This document shows, in pieces, positions 13,987 to 47,719 of a stretch of DNA of 64,000 nucleotides. The notes beneath the pieces are model-generated. The model saw nothing but the letters and a program-made list of their open reading frames with translations. It searched no databases and had not been told where the DNA came from. The first letter of the stretch is position 1; every line of letters begins with the position of its first letter. The position numbers and the translations under genes are program-made. The stretch lies in contig JBDHWW010000012.1 in the NCBI GenBank assembly GCA_039810425.1, forward strand, positions 1 through 64,000, given 5' to 3'. Origin of the DNA: Pseudobdellovibrionaceae bacterium. Its GTDB lineage: Bacteria > Bdellovibrionota > Bdellovibrionia > Bdellovibrionales > Bdellovibrionaceae.

Positions 13987-15552
13987 CTACCTCGCGTGTT
14001 CAACAGTGCGGCTCTCGCGAACCACGGTGACTTTAACTTGCCCAGCTTGTGGCATTTCACGCTCGATCTTACGAGCGATATCCCGTGCCAGCATTGTTGA
14101 CTGATCGTCGGTCACTTTACCGCTCTCAACCATCACACGCACCTCACGGCCGGCTTGCAATGCGAACGTTTTTAAAACGCCGTCAAAGCTGTTGCCGATG
14201 CTCTCAAGATCTTCCAAGCGATGGATGTAAGCATCCATGTGCGGACGACGCGCGCCCGGACGAGAAGCGGACAGGATATTTGCCGCATGGATGATCCACG
14301 CCAAAGCGGATGTTGGTTTTTCATCGTCTTGGTGGGCACGGATGGCGTGGCAGATCTCTTCGGATTCGCCATATTTTTTTGCCCACTCGGCGCCAACCAA
14401 GGCATAGCTGCCTTCAGCGGTGTGCTCAATCGCGCGGCCGATTTCATGCAAGATCCCCGCCCGGCGGGCTTGCTTTACGTTCATACCCATTTCGCCAGCC
14501 AAGAGGCCCGCGATGTAAGCCACTTCCAAAGAATGATTCAATACATTCTGCGCGTGGGTTGAACGGTACTTCAGGCTACCGATGAGTTTTACCAACTCAG
14601 GGTGGATGTTCGGAATACCGAGCTCCACAACGACACGTTCGCCTTCTTCCTTAATAGATTTAGTGATTTCGTTCTTTTGTTTTTCGACGACTTCCTCAAT
14701 ACGAGCTGGATGAACACGACCATCCTCCATGAGCTTTTCAATCGTGCGCTTCGCCAGTTCACGGCGAACCGGGTCGAAGCCGGAAATAACCACGGCCTCT
14801 GGAGTGTCATCCACGATCAAATCCACGCCGCACATTGCTTCCAACGTACGGATATTACGGCCTTCACGGCCTATGATTTTACCTTTCATCTCATCGCTTG
14901 GCAGAGCTAACACACTGACCGTTCTTTCAGACGTATACTCGGAAGCAAATCGAGACAATGCCGTGCTGATAATGCGACGAGCTTTTTTGTCGGCCTCTTT
15001 TTGCGCTTCTTCTTCGATCGCGGAAATTTTCTTGGAAGCTTCCACTTTCGCCTCATCTTCAAGGGCCGTGACCAATTGGCGGCGAGCCTCTTCCGCTGTC
15101 ATTGCCGCGATAGACTCCAATTTCAACTTCATTTCACCAATGTGGGTTTCCGCTTTTTTCTCGAGGTCTTTAATGCGTGTTTCAGTGATCGCGACTTTTT
15201 CTTCGCGGTCTTTCAACTGACCGACAAAACGGTCGTTCTCTTCCAGCTTCACTTTGAACTGATCGTCGACCTCTTTAAGACGACGCTCCAACTGAGCCTC
15301 TTTATTCTTCATCTGCGCTTTTTGCTTGTGAATATCAGCCTCGACGTTTTTACGCGCTCGGGCTTCGAAATCCTTCGCCTTATTTTCAGAATCTTTCTTC
15401 ACTTTCGCCGCTTCAGACTTCGCCTTGTTGATGATGCGGTCTGATTCAGCACGCGCTGACTTCTTTTGGGATTCATCTTGAATTCGTTTTACAACGAAGA
15501 CAAGAACGCCCCCGATAGCCAACCCAAGAATCGATGCGATAACAACTTCCAT
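13987..15552 (-). CDS. rny: Ribonuclease Y homologue with a degenerate HD domain
   Basis: N-terminal TM helix, coiled coil, KH motif [17 protein letters not shown] and QAGREVRV. Confidence 0.93.
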
Positions 15553-15566
15553 AACCGGACTCCTAC

Positions 15567-16136
15567 CTACTTACACTGAATAATTTCGTTTTCGGTGACA
15601 ACAAAGTCGACGTTAATGTCGTGCTCTTCCACCGGAAAGTTCTCAGCAAGGACCTGGCAGCCAAAACAGATGCCAACCTTGGGACCTTTGTAATCAGCCA
15701 GGGCTTTGTCATAAAACCCACGGCCTCTACCTAAACGATTGCCTTTTTTATTAAATCCTAAACCCGGAACTAAAACTCCGGTGAGCTTCTCGAGATCCAA
15801 CTTACGGGAATCCTCGAAGGGCTCCATCACCCCAAACGGGCCTTTGATGAAATTTTGCGAGACATAAAAGGTCAAGTGACCGGCTTCCATGCGCGGAAAA
15901 GCCCATTCGATTTTTTCGGAATGATGAAACACCGGACTCAAATCCGGTTCCTGGGGAAGGGCATTATAACCCGCCCAAGTGCCCTGTCTTTGACTGATGA
16001 ATTCTGTGAGATTTTCACAGAGCTGCTGCTGGATTTGCACGGACGAATGCGGGGACTCTTTTTGCAAAAGAGCCTTCAGGTGGTCACGCCATTGACGTTT
16101 ACCCCACGCTTGCATTTTATCTATACGCAAACTCAT
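15567..16136 (-). CDS. ygfA: 5-formyltetrahydrofolate cyclo-ligase
   Basis: VPGLGF..GNRLGRGRGFYD and EEHDI motifs. Confidence 0.92.
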   Translation of the reverse strand: MSLRIDKMQAWGKRQWRDHLKALLQKESPHSSVQIQQQLCENLTEFISQRQGTWAGYNALPQEPDLSPVFHHSEKIEWAFPRMEAGHLTFYVSQNFIKGPFGVMEPFEDSRKLDLEKLTGVLVPGLGFNKKGNRLGRGRGFYDKALADYKGPKVGICFGCQVLAENFPVEEHDINVDFVVTENEIIQCK

Positions 16137-16172
16137 CCCAGCCTCAAAACGAAAACAGAAATTTAAAGTTAA

Positions 16173-16475
16173 CTAAACTGTTCTGTTGAGCTTGGAATTT
16201 TCTAGATCGATAGAGAGTTTAAGTGCCTTTTCTTCTATTTTCTCAAGCTCGCGGTGAGCTTTTCTTTTGAGAAGAATTAGTTCCTCAGCCACATTAAGAG
16301 CTGTTAGAACCGCTGCATTTTGAAAAGAACCGTACTTCGTCACCGACAAAGCTTGGTCCATTTTATTGTTCACAAATTCGACGAGTTCCTGAACAGTCGC
16401 ATCATCATGGGAAGTTTTTAACTTATATGGGACTCCCGCAATAAGGAAGTCGTAGGTTTTTTTCTCAGATGCCAC
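16173..16475 (-). CDS. zapA: Cell division protein ZapA
   Basis: IAGVPYKL...AVLTALNVAEEL; usual zapA-ygfA-rny context. Confidence 0.88.
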   Translation of the reverse strand: MASEKKTYDFLIAGVPYKLKTSHDDATVQELVEFVNNKMDQALSVTKYGSFQNAAVLTALNVAEELILLKRKAHRELEKIEEKALKLSIDLENSKLNRTV

Positions 16476-16648
16476 TCGGACCTCGTGGGCCGTTCTTGGC
16501 CCTCACAAATCTTAAACTAAATCTTTAAACCGTCTGTCTTAATACTTTGTAAGTATCCTCAAGGGTTCTAGAAAATCCTTTTCAACAGTACTTAAAAATT
16601 ATAACTGACTTCACAGACTTAGCAACTTTTGTTTGTCAGATAGCTGCG

Positions 16649-17245
16649 TTATTTTTGAAAACAGGTGCAAACCGTGCCCAAGCCATTCTTCTCTTCGCAG
16701 AAAAGACGCTGATGGGCCTTTTCATCATTAAACTCCAGCTCGAAAATCTTTTGAAAAGCGCGTTTAAAACTCAATGTCTGTCCATTAAGCTTGGTGTCAT
16801 AGTAGGAGCGCTCATCCTCGACCACGTCTTGATTGAGAAAATACTGATCGAGGTCCTTCTGACTCGGATCCATGCGCTGAGCGGCAGGGATGATGATGGG
16901 CGTCCCCACTCCCTTGGCATCGAGGCTTTCAATGCTCAGGAGATAGCTGGCCTTGCCATTTTTCACCGGTTTTGCTGAAAGTTTGAGCCGCTTCTGCTGT
17001 CCCGTGGAATCTTTGAGCAGCACTTGGCGGTAGCGAAGGAGTGACTGCGACGTGACATAGCTCTTATCAACATCGTCCTTCAAAACGTTCAAGTCGACTT
17101 TGAGGGATTGAGCTTCATTTTTTAAACCGGGAAAGCATTTAATCACGTTGGTATAGGAAACAGAAATAGGTTTTTCCTTGGCTTCAGCCTCTGAAAAAAC
17201 ACCTAAAGTGATTACACACGCCGTAGATAAAAATGCCTTTAGCAA
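16649..17245 (-). CDS. Secreted hypothetical protein
   Basis: Long ORF with a signal-like segment; start uncertain (TTG at 17245, or 17311). Confidence 0.7.
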   Translation of the reverse strand: MLKAFLSTACVITLGVFSEAEAKEKPISVSYTNVIKCFPGLKNEAQSLKVDLNVLKDDVDKSYVTSQSLLRYRQVLLKDSTGQQKRLKLSAKPVKNGKASYLLSIESLDAKGVGTPIIIPAAQRMDPSQKDLDQYFLNQDVVEDERSYYDTKLNGQTLSFKRAFQKIFELEFNDEKAHQRLFCEEKNGLGTVCTCFQK

Positions 17246-17288
17246 ATAGCCCCCAAGAGGCCCAATCAAAGGCCCCTTCAGAATGCTA

Positions 17289-19037
17289 TTAATATTTACT
17301 GAGGAATGCAATCACGTCCAAATCTTGGCCGTTCGCCACCCCGGCCCCCCCCGGCATTGGCCCAGTCAGTTGATCCAAAGTGTATCCCGTGAAGGCATCG
17401 GTGTTACGGTCATGCTGGAAGCGCAGCCATTTTTCGCGATCATACCATTGCTTCTTGGTATCGTCGTCACGACAAGTTGCAAGCTCATTGCCTTGAGCGC
17501 CCCAACGAAGTTCCGGGCAGTGATACGGATCAAAACTCAATCCATAGATCCTGGCACGCGCTTTTTCCAAGTTGATGGTAACACCTTGGCCGACGCTGTT
17601 TTTGTAAGTGATTTGGCAAGCAGTCGCCGTTTGCTTATATGCATTCAACATATCTGCCGCGATATTTTTGCCATCATATCCAACTTTTCCATCACGAGCT
17701 TTATAGTGACGAATCGCCTCTTGCACATAGGTGCGGAGCTCTTGGAAGGCCACTTTTAAACGTGCGTCACGAGCTGGGGTTGCGTAAGTTTCCCACTCAC
17801 CGTCGGCACCGTAAATATTGTTCGGAAGCGCATAGGGATGTTCTTTTTGATTGATACCGGCTGAAATTGCCACTTGCACTGCATCGGCGCGCTCTTGCAT
17901 TCCGTTACACAACTCGGTTGTCATGACTTTGACATCATCAATGGGGTTTTCTACGAGCGGCCCGTCAGCCAAACGGTTACGAACCCAATCGTAATAATCC
18001 ATCTGCTGACCTTGAAACGCAAAGCCTGCTTGACGCCAATCCTGGCTTGCCGTCGTTCCGAAGTATTGTTCGGTGCTGTACATGGGAAGATCGCGGTCTT
18101 TGGCGCCAACGATTTTACCGCCGACATATCCAACACTCGCATTCCACACCGCGCCTGTCAGACGCAGAGGACGCCAATTTTTAAAACCCGCCCCTTGCCC
18201 CGGGTAAGAACGGATAAAGCGAGAGTTGTACAAACCTGAAGTCAGACTGTTATCCGGATGCGCATCGATATAATAAATGCGCCCGTCCTTTGTCACTTTG
18301 TAGACCGTCACCACGTGACCGTTGGGATCATAGATCACCGTGCCCGGGCGAACGGCGTCGCGCGTGATACGCACGGGATAAAAATCTGAAAAAAGTTTAT
18401 CCGCATCCATCCCCGAATAGCTCACGCGGAAATTCGCCGAAGAGACTTCGTCCGGCAAAGTCCCATTGAAAATCTCTAGGGCGTTTGTCACTCTCGGGCT
18501 GCCGAAGCGGGCCGGCTCGGTGAGCACCGCAAAGCGGGAACGAACTGTATTTCCATATGGAGAGTAGCGAATGTCTTTAACCACATCTCCCGGTCCTTGA
18601 ATCGGACTCACACTGCTGACGAAGCTAAATGGCAGCTGATTTTTCCAAGCATAGTAGGCGCGCAAGAAGTACGGAAAATCCGCGCAGTCTGAATAGAATT
18701 TCAGATAGGCCACATCCGATTGCGCATAGGGATTTACTTGAGGATTACGGAAGCAACTCGACACCGTCGCACAGAGACCGCGGGAAACTCCCTCTCCCAC
18801 CATGGAGATATAGCGGATGTAGTTTTGCTCCTCTGCAACCCCCCACTCGGTCTTGGTCAGGGGCCAGGGTTCTGAGACCGCTAAAAGCTCGGCATCAAAA
18901 GGTCTCACGGCATCGCGTGAATATCCCTCTTGGGCGTAGCCATCGAAGGCGATGAGCAACGTTAATACGATGAATATAAAAAAGAAGCTGAGATTGCGGT
19001 CTTTGCCGCCGCGAATAGTGGTGCCTCGATTTGTCAC
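17289..19037 (-). CDS. Large secreted protein with a putative NlpC/P60 (papain-like) Cys-His catalytic core
   Basis: Signal peptide; SDCADF...PGTVIY...GHV...IDAH; start uncertain (19037 GTG with GGAGG SD, or 19109). Confidence 0.7.
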   Translation of the reverse strand: MTNRGTTIRGGKDRNLSFFFIFIVLTLLIAFDGYAQEGYSRDAVRPFDAELLAVSEPWPLTKTEWGVAEEQNYIRYISMVGEGVSRGLCATVSSCFRNPQVNPYAQSDVAYLKFYSDCADFPYFLRAYYAWKNQLPFSFVSSVSPIQGPGDVVKDIRYSPYGNTVRSRFAVLTEPARFGSPRVTNALEIFNGTLPDEVSSANFRVSYSGMDADKLFSDFYPVRITRDAVRPGTVIYDPNGHVVTVYKVTKDGRIYYIDAHPDNSLTSGLYNSRFIRSYPGQGAGFKNWRPLRLTGAVWNASVGYVGGKIVGAKDRDLPMYSTEQYFGTTASQDWRQAGFAFQGQQMDYYDWVRNRLADGPLVENPIDDVKVMTTELCNGMQERADAVQVAISAGINQKEHPYALPNNIYGADGEWETYATPARDARLKVAFQELRTYVQEAIRHYKARDGKVGYDGKNIAADMLNAYKQTATACQITYKNSVGQGVTINLEKARARIYGLSFDPYHCPELRWGAQGNELATCRDDDTKKQWYDREKWLRFQHDRNTDAFTGYTLDQLTGPMPGGAGVANGQDLDVIAFLSKY

Positions 19038-19184
19038 TGTGCCCTCCAGAGCTATCAATATTTTTGACAGGTCAGAAAGACTTACAGGATGTCTTTTACC
19101 AGGGTTCACTATAATGCGGAAGAAACTGTCACACTTATTGCTTTAAAGGCTGGCAGTTGAATTTTCAAAGTGATTTTTGCCCTG

Positions 19185-19253
19185 TGGTGTTCGACCCCCC
19201 TTGGACCCACGGAGCACCAAAACGGAGCGCCAAAACGCTCCGTTTTCTTTTTT
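19185..19253 (+). ncRNA. Candidate sRNA 3' part: C-rich-loop hairpin followed by a terminator
   Basis: TGGTGTTC/GAGCACCA stem, then AAAACGGAGCG/CGCTCCGTTTT and a T tract; no credible + strand gene upstream. Confidence 0.45.
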
Positions 19254-19366
19254 GTCCCGTCCGCATCTTCGGAGTGAGCCCTGCAATTGAATTTATCCGA
19301 CCGGCCATTGACTCATCCGGACGCCACTGTCGCTTCAATCTCTTTTAAAAAATCATAGCTTGCAAA

Positions 19367-19453
19367 CAGAAAAAGCGGCCCTAGAAGCCGCTTTTAAGGA
19401 TGAGAGACTCCCTTTTCGCGAAGGAGACTCTTATGAATCGAAATACCAAGCAT
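19367..19453 (-). ncRNA. Candidate ~87-nt sigma28-dependent antisense sRNA (could instead encode the leaderless 19-aa MLGISIHKSLLREKGVSHP)
   Basis: Bounded by the promoter at 19459-19485 and the terminator at 19370-19395; contains an internal hairpin. Confidence 0.55.
19370..19395. terminator. Bidirectional Rho-independent terminator
   Basis: AAAAAGCGGC-cctagaa-GCCGCTTTT. Confidence 0.8.
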
Positions 19454-19531
19454 ATTTCTTTTCGGCTATTTAATAAAAAACTGCAGGTCCTGCTCTTAAT
19501 TTTGTTATTGCTGTTGAGCTGCTGCAGTTAG
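19433..19531 (+). CDS. Candidate 32-aa hydrophobic peptide MNRNTKHISFRLFNKKLQVLLLILLLLLSCCS
   Basis: AAGGAG SD 6 nt upstream of ATG; basic N-terminus and Leu-rich stretch; below the ORF-track size cutoff. Confidence 0.45.
   Translation: MNRNTKHISFRLFNKKLQVLLLILLLLLSCCS
19459..19485 (-). promoter_or_regulatory. Sigma28 (FliA)-type promoter
   Basis: TGCAGTTT-N11-GCCGAAAA versus consensus TAAAGTTT-N11-GCCGATAA. Confidence 0.7.
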
Positions 19532-19639
19532 ATTTTAGATGGATCCTAAACGGGCTTAGTTTAGAACTATAGTCCTGGTAAGTGGGCAACCAGGCTTTAA
19601 ACTTGGAGTGCGATGCAATGACGAAGCTTCTGGGGCCAC

Positions 19640-19981
19640 CTATATTTGCACAGGTAGCAAAAAGGTTCCATCGTTCTGAACAGGAAAATCTACGACCCCA
19701 ACAACTGCATCTAAATTTAACGGTCCATAGATATGCGGATAGTCTTCATTGAGATTGTAGAGGTCTTCGTATTTCACAAGGTGATCTAATTTACTTTCAT
19801 CAATTACTAAAAGAACGAGACCCTGCTTGCCTTTAAAATTGTAGTTAGCCACTTCCACGACCTGCTCGCCTAGTGAACAATGAATAAAGCCGTCTTTTTT
19901 CAAAGAAGGAGCCGTATAGACTCCTTCCGCCTGCGCCTTCTTCCAATCACTAACCGATGTTATGTGAAGAATCTTTCCCAC
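19640..19981 (-). CDS. DUF952 family protein
   Basis: SLKKDGFIHCS and YPHIYGPL motifs; GTG start after GAGGA. Confidence 0.85.
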   Translation of the reverse strand: MGKILHITSVSDWKKAQAEGVYTAPSLKKDGFIHCSLGEQVVEVANYNFKGKQGLVLLVIDESKLDHLVKYEDLYNLNEDYPHIYGPLNLDAVVGVVDFPVQNDGTFLLPVQI

Positions 19982-19994
19982 GACATTCCTCAAA

Positions 19995-21173
19995 CTAGTT
20001 GGCGAAAATGCTTTCAACAAATTCATGTGGGCTGAAGTGGCGGAGATCTTGGATGCGCTCGCCGACGCCGATGAACTTGATTGGGATTTGCAATTCGTTC
20101 GCGAGGCCCACGGCTACGCCGCCTTTTGCAGTGCCATCCATTTTAGTCAAGATCGCGCCCGTCAAAGTCAGAGCTTTGTGGTATTCCTTCGCTTGAATCA
20201 AAGCGTTTTGGCCGGAGTTTGCATCGAGTACGATAATCACTTCGTGAGGTGCATCAGGAATAACCTTCGTCATCACGCGCTTCATTTTCTTGAGCTCTTC
20301 CATCAGGTTTTCTTGCGTGTGCAAGCGGCCTGCGGTGTCGATGATGACGATGTCATAGTTTTGACCCTTGGCTTTTGAAACCGCATCGAAAGCGACAGCA
20401 CTTGGATCTTTCACCCCATCTGGAGAGAAGATTTCAACCTGCGCACGCTCCGTCCACACTTTCAACTGCCCACCAGCCGCTGCACGGAAGGTATCACCCG
20501 CTGCCACGAGGACGCGTTTGCCTTGGCTCGCGAACTGCGCTGACAACTTACCGATACTTGTGGTTTTACCAGCACCGTTCACGCCAACGACCATCAAAAC
20601 TGTTGGACCGTCTTTAGAGAACTGCAAATCATTGCTCGGAAGATTTGAGAACACACCTTCCATTTCGGTTTTCAAAGTGTCGCGCACTTTACCGAGATCG
20701 GCTTTTTCTTTGCGATTCATGTCCTCGAGAGCACCCATCAAGCGCTGAACTGTTTCAGGGCCCAAGTCGCTCGTGTAGAGAACTTCTTCGATGTCTTCTA
20801 AGTGCGATGAGGCTTCGTTGGCTTTAAAGAGATTCTTGATACGACCGAAGATGTTTTCTTCTGTCGCTCGAAGGGCCTTCTTAAGATCGACTTCTTTTTC
20901 TTCAGCAACGGGAGCTGGCGCCGGCGCTGGAGCCGCGGCTTTAACCGGAACGGCTTCGGGCTCTGGCTTTGCGGCTTCTTTCAGTTGTTCTGAAAGTGGC
21001 TTTTCTTGAGTTTGGGCGATTTGCTCCGCCGCTTTTCTGGCAGCAGTATCACGTGGGTTTTCGCCTTTGTTTCTTAGGAGGAAGTACCAAAGCGCGATAA
21101 AGATCAGAGTAAAAACAACGCCGAGGAGTCCAAAGATGGCGATCACATGGTCTTCATTCACATTTTGAAACAT
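19995..21173 (-). CDS. ftsY: SRP receptor FtsY with an N-terminal TM anchor
   Basis: GVNGAGKTT, DTFRAAA, DTAGR and TKMDGTAKGG motifs. Confidence 0.96.
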   Translation of the reverse strand: MFQNVNEDHVIAIFGLLGVVFTLIFIALWYFLLRNKGENPRDTAARKAAEQIAQTQEKPLSEQLKEAAKPEPEAVPVKAAAPAPAPAPVAEEKEVDLKKALRATEENIFGRIKNLFKANEASSHLEDIEEVLYTSDLGPETVQRLMGALEDMNRKEKADLGKVRDTLKTEMEGVFSNLPSNDLQFSKDGPTVLMVVGVNGAGKTTSIGKLSAQFASQGKRVLVAAGDTFRAAAGGQLKVWTERAQVEIFSPDGVKDPSAVAFDAVSKAKGQNYDIVIIDTAGRLHTQENLMEELKKMKRVMTKVIPDAPHEVIIVLDANSGQNALIQAKEYHKALTLTGAILTKMDGTAKGGVAVGLANELQIPIKFIGVGERIQDLRHFSPHEFVESIFAN

Positions 21174-21175
21174 GG

Positions 21176-25014
<3,839 letters not shown>

Positions 25015-47239: not shown

Positions 47240-47668
47240 TTATTTTCTCGAGAGAATTGTTTTGAACGCCGTCTCTAAAAACTCATGTGAATCGGGCTCA
47301 GAAGCTTTCAGCATGCCCTGATAGGCTTTGGTAACATCGACGAGGCTGGCGCCCGCCGGCAGGCCGAGCACCTCATATGCGTCCCAAGTGTGGCCATTAT
47401 AATTAAATAAAATATTAAGATCTTTGCTTTCACCGCTCGGAAGTGGTGTTTCTTCGAGGTACTTCTGATAGCGCGGGTGACTGTAGCGGCCACTCTGGGT
47501 TCTTACCCCATTCCGGTTTTTTTGCAATACACCGCCCGGGTTTTGATTCCCCTCCTTCATTTTAAGCCGAGTGGTCTTTTTAGACGATCCTCGCCGCCCA
47601 GCGAGAAACCAGATGATAAAGAACGATAAAATAGCGATGTTGATAAGCAAAAACTGTTGGCTATTCAC
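47240..47668 (-). CDS. Membrane-anchored protein with a truncated J-domain-like C-terminus
   Basis: N-terminal TM helix; DAYEVLGL..GAS...V.KAY. Confidence 0.7.
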   Translation of the reverse strand: MNSQQFLLINIAILSFFIIWFLAGRRGSSKKTTRLKMKEGNQNPGGVLQKNRNGVRTQSGRYSHPRYQKYLEETPLPSGESKDLNILFNYNGHTWDAYEVLGLPAGASLVDVTKAYQGMLKASEPDSHEFLETAFKTILSRK

Positions 47669-47719
47669 TTAATTTTTATTATTGGTGTTGAGCGCTTATT
47701 TAGCAAGTAGGAGTTCTCA

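Follow-up and report, generated by a model that had tools for sequence, protein, structure and literature searches.

Type I toxin-antitoxin (TA) loci are described as a class (PMC8594479) by their sizes, by occlusion of the Shine-Dalgarno (SD) motif, and by the overlap of their two RNAs: an mRNA of 150–400 nt encodes a hydrophobic peptide of 20–60 aa, a cis-antisense RNA of 60–200 nt with its own promoter and terminator covers the translation start, and the SD is hidden by an anti-SD, by pairing of the 5' and 3' ends, or by both. Repeated, tandem, and patchily distributed loci with inactivated copies are a further mark of the class. Among described families, aapA/IsoA of Helicobacter and Campylobacter is the closest to the locus reported here. 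As set out in PMC5416894, PMC6733600, and PMC8594479, a peptide of ~30 aa is encoded there by an mRNA within which an ~80-nt antisense RNA lies wholly, overlapping the start of the open reading frame (ORF) and arising from a promoter in the coding sequence; an upstream anti-SD hairpin, a 5'–3' long-distance interaction, and several chromosomal copies, some of them dead, are likewise shared with our locus. Both hok/sok and ldr/rdl also have a long silent mRNA with end-to-end pairing and (in ldr) tandem repeats. Their antisense RNA, as described in PMC8594479, lies 5' of the ORF and is accompanied by a leader ORF, whereas in our locus the antisense RNA would overlap codons 1–7 and there is no conserved leader ORF. 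HokB uses a periplasmic Cys for DsbA-made dimers, according to PMC8309996, and a conserved Cys is also present in the peptide described below.

The locus lies in a window of 64,000 nt (contig JBDHWW010000012.1 of the Pseudobdellovibrionaceae bacterium assembly GCA_039810425.1, positions 1 to 64,000), in a 530-nt gap between a DUF952 gene (19640–20026, minus strand) and a gene for a 606-aa protein (17289–19109, minus strand). A contig from a possible source run covers the region with zero differences. An earlier note had proposed a type I TA-like pair at 19367–19531; the SD, ORF, occluding hairpin, FliA promoter, terminator, and 19-aa minus-strand ORF that it listed were all verified in position. 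Its architecture is strongly supported by multiple and tandem copies, decayed copies, purifying selection, and a covarying helix, but its extent is not: the unit is ~345 nt long (19296–19641), and the proposed span omits the 3' third (19532–19641) and the upstream motifs (19296–19365). The features of the unit are as follows.

19296–19304, plus strand: TCCG-type motif ~64 nt 5' of TTGC, marking the unit's 5' edge; candidate site for a regulator
19360–19365, plus strand: TTGC(A), candidate sense-promoter core (sigma54 -12-like), invariant in 10/10 aligned copies
19375–19641, plus strand: predicted full-length peptide mRNA, ~265 nt, both ends placed by the terminal helix
19375–19388, plus strand: 5' arm of the long-distance helix, doubling as the antisense terminator's left arm and loop
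19400–19434, plus strand: anti-SD/SD hairpin occluding the ribosome-binding site, -12.2 kcal/mol
19421–19426, plus strand: Shine-Dalgarno sequence AAGGAG, conserved among copies
19433–19531, plus strand: 32-aa ORF, candidate toxin, with a basic N-region, a 10–12-residue hydrophobic stretch, a lipobox-like end, and a penultimate Cys
19574–19594, plus strand: conserved 3' UTR hairpin, lost in some shortened copies (e.g. L084)
19603–19610, plus strand: 3' UTR GGAG/GGGA motif that could pair with the anti-SD
19626–19639, plus strand: 3' arm of the long-distance helix, 13/14 positions of which pair with 19375–19388 in the window
19459–19485, minus strand: FliA (sigma28)-type promoter inside the ORF (-35 at 19485–19478, -10 at 19466–19459)
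19368–19452, minus strand: predicted antisense RNA, candidate antitoxin, ~80–85 nt, spanning codons 1–7, the SD, and the entire leader
19370–19395, minus strand: intrinsic terminator of the antisense RNA (stem 19395–19371)

We consider that this element is probably a chromosomal type I TA module of a new family with aapA/IsoA architecture. Set against the class description, the predicted mRNA measures 218–296 nt in copies with a true 3' arm (its ends placed by the terminal helix) and the peptide 31–34 aa; the signals for a predicted cis-antisense RNA over the translation start, promoter and terminator included, are found in 28/28 copies; the SD is occluded in predicted folds; and the loci are repeated, tandem, and patchy, with inactivated copies. 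The reading draws on the multi-copy, tandem, and patchy loci, selection on the ORF, decayed copies, the FliA site in every parsed copy, and the covarying helix. Two features appear unlike the type I families in the accounts cited here, namely a sigma28-type antitoxin promoter and a peptide with the shape of a lipoprotein signal peptide plus one residue. The IsoA1 promoter, for example, has a TATAAT -10 (PMC5416894) rather than a FliA-type one, and AapA1 needs a cationic C-terminus in the cytosol (as reported in PMC8309996), whereas the present peptide has an uncharged, lipobox-like end with Cys-Ser/Gly in 25/25 intact copies. It is also the extreme 5' end that enters the long-distance helix here, the SD being left in its local hairpin. 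No match to the element was found in Rfam (nothing at E<=10; sub-threshold matches only for five homologous loci), and no family was found for the peptide in Pfam, NCBIfam, PDB, or the ESM Atlas; homology to aapA/IsoA was judged from the Rfam, Pfam, NCBIfam, and PDB libraries, which may or may not hold AapA and IsoA models. With the cationic C-terminus absent and no homology detected, we regard the element as working like aapA/IsoA but do not file it as a member.

In a DNA search of 41 genomes, four relatives from the same genus proved to hold the part at ~19360–19640 in separate copies, with four copies in G003 (three in tandem, ~380 nt apart), two each in G004 and G005, and seven in G006, whole or partial; G001 matched in the flank only, and G002 gave nothing. 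The window's own genome has a single copy. With a peptide profile, the module extends to a second genus (g10) and is found in 13 of 182 genomes of the family Bdellovibrionaceae, in these two genera only and at one to six copies per genome: 5/7 genomes of the window's genus, 8/44 of g10, and none in the other 39 genera. It was not found in 36 of the 44 genomes of the neighbouring genus or in two of the six other genomes of the window's genus. A fourteenth profile match (G067) was dropped as the start of a 2731-aa frame, as were the false matches G118 and the repetitive P0001 and a stretch of the window (47649–47693) that lies outside any module context. A scan of 401 genomes drawn from the phylum gave four peptide-profile matches outside the family, which were weak, came without the module, and were also dropped. 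The range outside the phylum rests on a DNA-pattern scan of one genome per prokaryote species rather than on a protein search: of 21 loci, 17 are in records titled Bdellovibrio or (Pseudo)bdellovibrionaceae, and the other four (non-Bdellovibrio) were discarded as they came without ORF or terminator. Among the carriers are completely sequenced cultured strains under the record titles Bdellovibrio sp. HCB-110, HCB-162, HCB117, and B. bacteriovorus s4, the last three of which have a single copy, and one metagenome contig carries another copy; phage and plasmid collections and two pattern scans of viral contigs gave no copy of the module.

The copies occupy unrelated chromosomal sites, and their flanking genes are ordinary and vary (fliW/rmuC, nadE, rpoH, clpB, murF, hemB, and others). 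At the fliW site, the unit is present in 3/30 loci fetched from 43 genomes with fliW, where it begins at the TCCG-type motif directly after the fliW terminator. In the window, the DUF952 gene lies downstream of ftsY, between ftsY and the module; at the orthologous site of G005 (L002), the DUF952 gene is missing and the module directly follows ftsY. In a tree of 27 copies, the two genera fall into separate groups (support 91/80), and 11/24 inner branches are unresolved.

The ORF of the earlier note is kept in most homologous copies. Among 28 distinct parsed copies, the ORF is intact in 25 (31–34 aa, ending in Cys-Ser or Cys-Gly), with the SD conserved; the other three are a copy truncated at a contig end, a copy with a nonsense codon (L083), and a copy with a frameshift (L067). 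Three further copies, read separately, comprise two intact ORFs and one broken by a premature stop (L066), so that three decayed ORFs are seen (L083, L067, and L066); one more match in G053 and two fragments in G006 stand outside these counts. A leader ORF from an in-frame upstream ATG at 19400 was rejected, its frame not being kept across copies. The ORF is under purifying selection: pN/pS, taken as uncorrected pairwise proportions over 19 distinct 32-codon sequences that are kin and not independent, is 0.81 for codons 2–8, 0.70 for codons 9–18, 0.33 for codons 19–28, and 0.15 for codons 29–32. Cys31 is invariant in the 19 distinct coding sequences, and both Cys codons are used. The N-region is basic (net charge +2 to +5 in 24/25 intact copies), and the best 11-residue Kyte-Doolittle mean is 3.0–3.65 across the peptides.

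In its basic N-region, short hydrophobic core, and lipobox followed by Ser or Gly, the peptide resembles signal peptides of signal peptidase II (described in PMC11769378); the gene, however, stops one residue after the Cys with no mature domain, its N-region is long, and many copies, the window's included, have Cys at -1. The strict lipobox [LVI][ASTVI][GAS]C (a rule given in PMC11769378) is found at the penultimate Cys in 14/25 intact copies, seven more (the window's included) have a looser lipobox at the preceding Cys, and 4/25 match neither rule. The residue after Cys, Ser or Gly, is one of two among the three commonest +2 residues in the window's genome, whereas Cys31 falls beyond the 12–29 range sampled for that genome's predicted lipoproteins. 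The same RNA logic could serve a non-toxic regulator or precursor that tunes the envelope or acts as a signal at the attack-to-growth switch, Lgt and LspA yielding a tiny lipidated Cys-Ser/Cys-Gly or releasing the signal peptide. The lipobox counts speak for this reading, as do the weak matches to LptM/LPAM_1 profiles (all below curated cut-offs), the profile matches outside the family, 5/5 of which are lipobox-ending stretches ahead of long reading frames, and the presence of Lgt and LspA families. We nevertheless think it unlikely: toxin loci typically show what is seen here, with silencing in three layers, antisense loops that differ by copy, duplication in tandem, and repeated decay, a needed function would hardly be missing from most relatives, and the four copies that fit neither lipobox rule, together with the position of Cys31, sit poorly with a lipoprotein precursor.

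Lgt and LspA are usually single-copy. In the genome G000, three Lgt-family and two LspA-family matches were observed, on contigs C27, C21, C3, and C49.

On the minus strand, the earlier note had predicted an RNA antisense to the SD, start codon, and leader, and the signals for it are found in all 28 copies: a FliA-type site stands at the same ORF register in each (frequency <=3.1e-4), facing a terminator ~80 nt away. With its start placed by the -10-to-start distance of mapped HD100 promoters, the predicted RNA is 75–88 nt in most copies, with a 5' part that varies, then a hairpin complementary to the SD-containing stretch, and last the terminator, whose hairpin closes the antisense-strand fold in every copy folded. 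The case for the element lies in such joint conservation in homologous copies, no single piece being far beyond chance: terminator-like sites in 3 kb, for instance, number 4 against 3.0 expected from shuffles, which is no excess.

The promoter had been called near-consensus. This is apt for the -10, which is identical to that before a flagellin gene of the same genome (promoter TAAAGTTT-N11-GCCGAAAA), and generous for the -35, which reads TGCAG against a TTAAG/TAAAG consensus; the window's clade has TGCAG, and most g10 copies have TTAAG or TTTAG. A matrix was built from 13 other N15 sites upstream of genes in the window's genome; on it, the site scores 16.7, within the top 3.3e-6 of genome positions and at the low end of the training sites. 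The window's genome has fliA, and upstream of genes it shows an excess of the FliA motif at just two spacings, 15 (13 sites) and 16 (28 sites), with densities of 4.0 (N15) and 8.6 (N16) per 100 kb against 0.6–0.7 in coding sequence, i.e. 6-fold and 14-fold. In HD100, the FliA consensus is given as TTAAG-N16-CCGATA (PMC3627812), and CCGAAAAG -10 variants occur among the mapped promoters (PMC3627812, Table S2). The codons beneath the promoter are constrained: Arg11 is CGG in 18/19 sequences (11% in the genome), Phe10 is TTT in 17/17 (51%), and Leu17 is CTN in 19/19 (63%), and pS is 0.37 there versus 0.74 in the next ten codons. Two copies (L058 and L065) keep the -10 in a shifted reading frame. 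On this comparative evidence, the antisense promoter is a feature conserved at the level of DNA. Its attack-phase specificity in the window's organism would be as in HD100, from which it is carried over by analogy.

These signals, the best-defined transcription signals of the locus, could be taken to mean that the locus functions through the FliA-driven ~80-nt RNA, which would act in trans during the attack phase, with the sense ORF a relic or by-product. HD100 indeed has small intergenic attack-phase RNAs (APsRNA1–7 and merRNA), three with FliA promoters (PMC3627812). The element, however, matches none of these eight by eye (Fig. S1 of that paper), and none is described as antisense to a peptide gene; identity with APsRNA1, which has a similar genome position near fliW, was rejected on sequence. 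Moreover, the ORF is under amino-acid selection and its SD conserved, the covarying helix joins the RNA's region to far-off sequence on the other strand, and variability in the RNA is highest in its 5' part and loops, as specificity in cis predicts. We therefore regard a trans-acting RNA as highly unlikely. Still less can be said for a leaderless mRNA on the minus strand encoding a 19-aa peptide (19394–19453), the alternative offered in the earlier note: the frame exists in the window, but only 1/13 other copies has an ATG at that place, and with a different peptide, the rest having no start or unrelated frames. On this lack of conservation we reject it, giving it almost no credence.

By-eye inspection of Fig. 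S1 of PMC3627812 also showed an SD-like motif and a short reading frame in each of APsRNA2, APsRNA5, and APsRNA7, which may be small-protein mRNAs.

The predicted mRNA appears to be silenced at two places. Locally, the SD hairpin has z -2.45 (4/200 shuffles are as good), and the unpaired probability of the SD is 0.05 in the window and 0–0.35 in 24/24 folded copies. At long range, the window's mRNA folds with paired ends (probability 1.0), and RNAalifold on ten copies pairs the first 11 leader bases with a segment ~250 nt downstream, a distance of ~190–250 nt over the copies. The arms of 26 copies form 20 distinct pairs, in which positions 3–11 are paired in 176/180 cells, with two-sided compensatory changes at seven positions and 13 G-U against one A-C; the comparison was ungapped, so that some changes may be shifts, and it left out four copies (one cut by a contig end, three without a 3' arm). 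Cognate arms average -22.3 kcal/mol versus -15.0 for non-cognate ones (0/10000 permutations, a test that overstates because the copies are kin). The helix has a probability of at least 0.9 in 19/24 folds, a set that took in the spurious arm of L081 and left out L061. The covariation falls mostly in the loop of the antisense terminator and so is not accounted for by that terminator, and the excess of G-U over A-C points to RNA. Covariation thus supports a 5'–3' long-distance helix as an RNA structure. Deletions of 25–60 nt in the 3' UTR (L084/L088, L058, and L067) retain the terminal helix, which shows the inner 3' UTR hairpins, unlike the end pairing, to be dispensable.

A short multi-copy unit with complementary ends at unrelated sites, among them 3/30 fliW loci, could also be a miniature inverted-repeat transposable element whose terminal inverted repeats mimic an RNA helix. 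The 'repeats', however, co-vary from copy to copy and tolerate G-U and not A-C (13 versus 1), conserved motifs reach ~80 nt beyond the left arm, no target-site duplication was seen by eye, the window's genome has a single copy, and a scan of 18 flanking proteins gave no transposase-family match at 1e-10. This reading is largely refuted, and we hold it to be extremely improbable.

Upstream of the predicted mRNA, the TCCG-type motif, often half of an imperfect TCCG-N-CGGA palindrome, is found at -67 to -57 in 27/28 copies versus 16/168 background windows. TTGC lies 70–78 nt upstream of the ATG; its distance count over 28 copies is anchored on TTGC itself, and its invariance refers to the ten aligned copies. 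A G stands ten bases 5' of TTGC in 22/28 copies, and the sigma54 form GG-N10-GC is exact in 8/28 and within one base in 13/28. The window copy has no GG; in the window's genome, the GG form shows enrichment upstream of genes, and the non-GG variants show none. Transcription from a sigma54 promoter would begin at ~19375, which fits, as the long-distance helix has its first base there. We name sigma54 as a weak candidate for the sense promoter, conceivable but on balance doubtful; the window copy may be weakly expressed. A sigma70 -35 reading of TTGCAA was rejected by eye (no -10 at 15–17 nt), as was a FliA reading of the upstream TCCGA (no conserved -35). A composite sense-promoter matrix had its best genome matches mostly within ORFs and pointed to no regulon.

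For a type I TA module of this build, we infer transcription, processing, antisense action, toxicity, and timing as follows. A sense promoter near 19360 would give an mRNA of ~265 nt from ~19375, translation being blocked by the anti-SD hairpin while the RNA is made. In the finished mRNA, the ends would lock in a 12–17-bp helix to a presumably stable silent form, and trimming of the 3' arm would, by analogy only, yield a translatable mRNA, a step that folding did not reproduce. From its start on the opposite strand within the ORF, FliA-RNA polymerase would make the ~80-nt RNA over leader, SD, and first codons, which would remove active mRNA, probably via RNase III. When FliA output falls (as growth phase begins, when phage or stress shuts off transcription, or once the locus is lost), peptide would be made, insert N-in/C-out in the inner membrane, and harm the cell. 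Lipidation of the conserved Cys by Lgt has, in our estimate, a little under an even chance; a disulfide link, by analogy with HokB, is a lesser possibility.

Several points stand against a type I TA module. No 3' truncation freed the SD in 21/21 copies, although these are equilibrium folds that may miss kinetic states. The sigma54-like G is missing in the window copy. Unlike most type I toxins described in PMC8309996, the peptide has a short hydrophobic stretch and a C-terminus that is not cationic. L091 keeps its ORF and TTGC after losing the 3' arm, and L081 keeps its ORF without one; a strictly lethal peptide might not tolerate such copies. The 3' UTR GGAG/GGGA motif may, as no more than a weak lead, be an activating element: it covaries weakly with the anti-SD, and its pairing there is modelled at -8.1 kcal/mol for cognate versus -6.7 for crossed partners (19/21 copies; 9/10000 permutations among kin that are not independent), and no equilibrium fold uses it.

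The membrane-active peptide switched by life-cycle stage that the earlier note envisaged is possible. The module is patchily distributed and was not found in most relatives, including many with complete genomes. This speaks against a core life-cycle switch and makes an accessory module, selfish or defensive and merely hitched to FliA, more likely. These predators have a filamentous growth phase. A more elaborate form of the TA reading, which we think rather unlikely, is an addiction module gated by the life cycle, whose toxin is a 'signal-peptide-only lipoprotein' and whose silent mRNA, deposited in the common cytoplasm of the filament during growth, passes to every one of the progeny. Each of these cells would then have to start its own FliA-driven antidote on becoming a swimmer, a parent-toxin/offspring-antidote logic of the Medea-like kind. 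The peptide would poison as a dead-end substrate of the Lgt-LspA-Lnt-Lol pathway or, alternatively, as a ribosomally made lipo-dipeptide (diacylglyceryl-Cys-Ser/Gly); our searches found no description of such a target or chemistry for any type I toxin.

In titles and abstract openings, we found no type I TA system of Bdellovibrio and no type I toxin with a lipobox, a lipoprotein signal peptide, or a link to FliA/sigma28; 'Bdellovibrio' is absent from the main texts of PMC8594479 and PMC2887945, whose supplements, like T1TAdb, could hold a candidate. If our reading is true, predatory Bdellovibrionaceae have a type I TA family with an antitoxin tied to the attack-phase sigma factor. Toxin release would then be coupled to a developmental switch open to synchronisation in the laboratory, making the debated timing of chromosomal type I toxins testable, and a lipobox-terminated toxin, if real, would point to lipoprotein maturation as a target.

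Neighbouring sequence holds features of its own. Left of the module, a second conserved element (19110–19256, plus strand) has a hairpin at 19179–19215 with compensatory changes and a terminator at 19219–19253 (z -4.5), preceded by a sigma54-like TGTCAC-N5-TTGC (19127–19141) and a TATAAT. It occurs in 3/61 genomes searched, all of the window's genus and including G001 (without the module), matches no Rfam family, and is a candidate ~100-nt sRNA divergent from the 606-aa gene. The 606-aa protein, which has a signal-peptide-like stretch and no Pfam match, is conserved in G005 and G001, and its true start is probably downstream of the listed GTG. A 6S RNA gene often lies between zapA and the gene for 5-formyltetrahydrofolate cyclo-ligase. 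Rfam gave no 6S RNA match in 15000–22000, and in the window these two genes (15567–16475, minus strand) are 36 nt apart, with no room for a 6S RNA gene.
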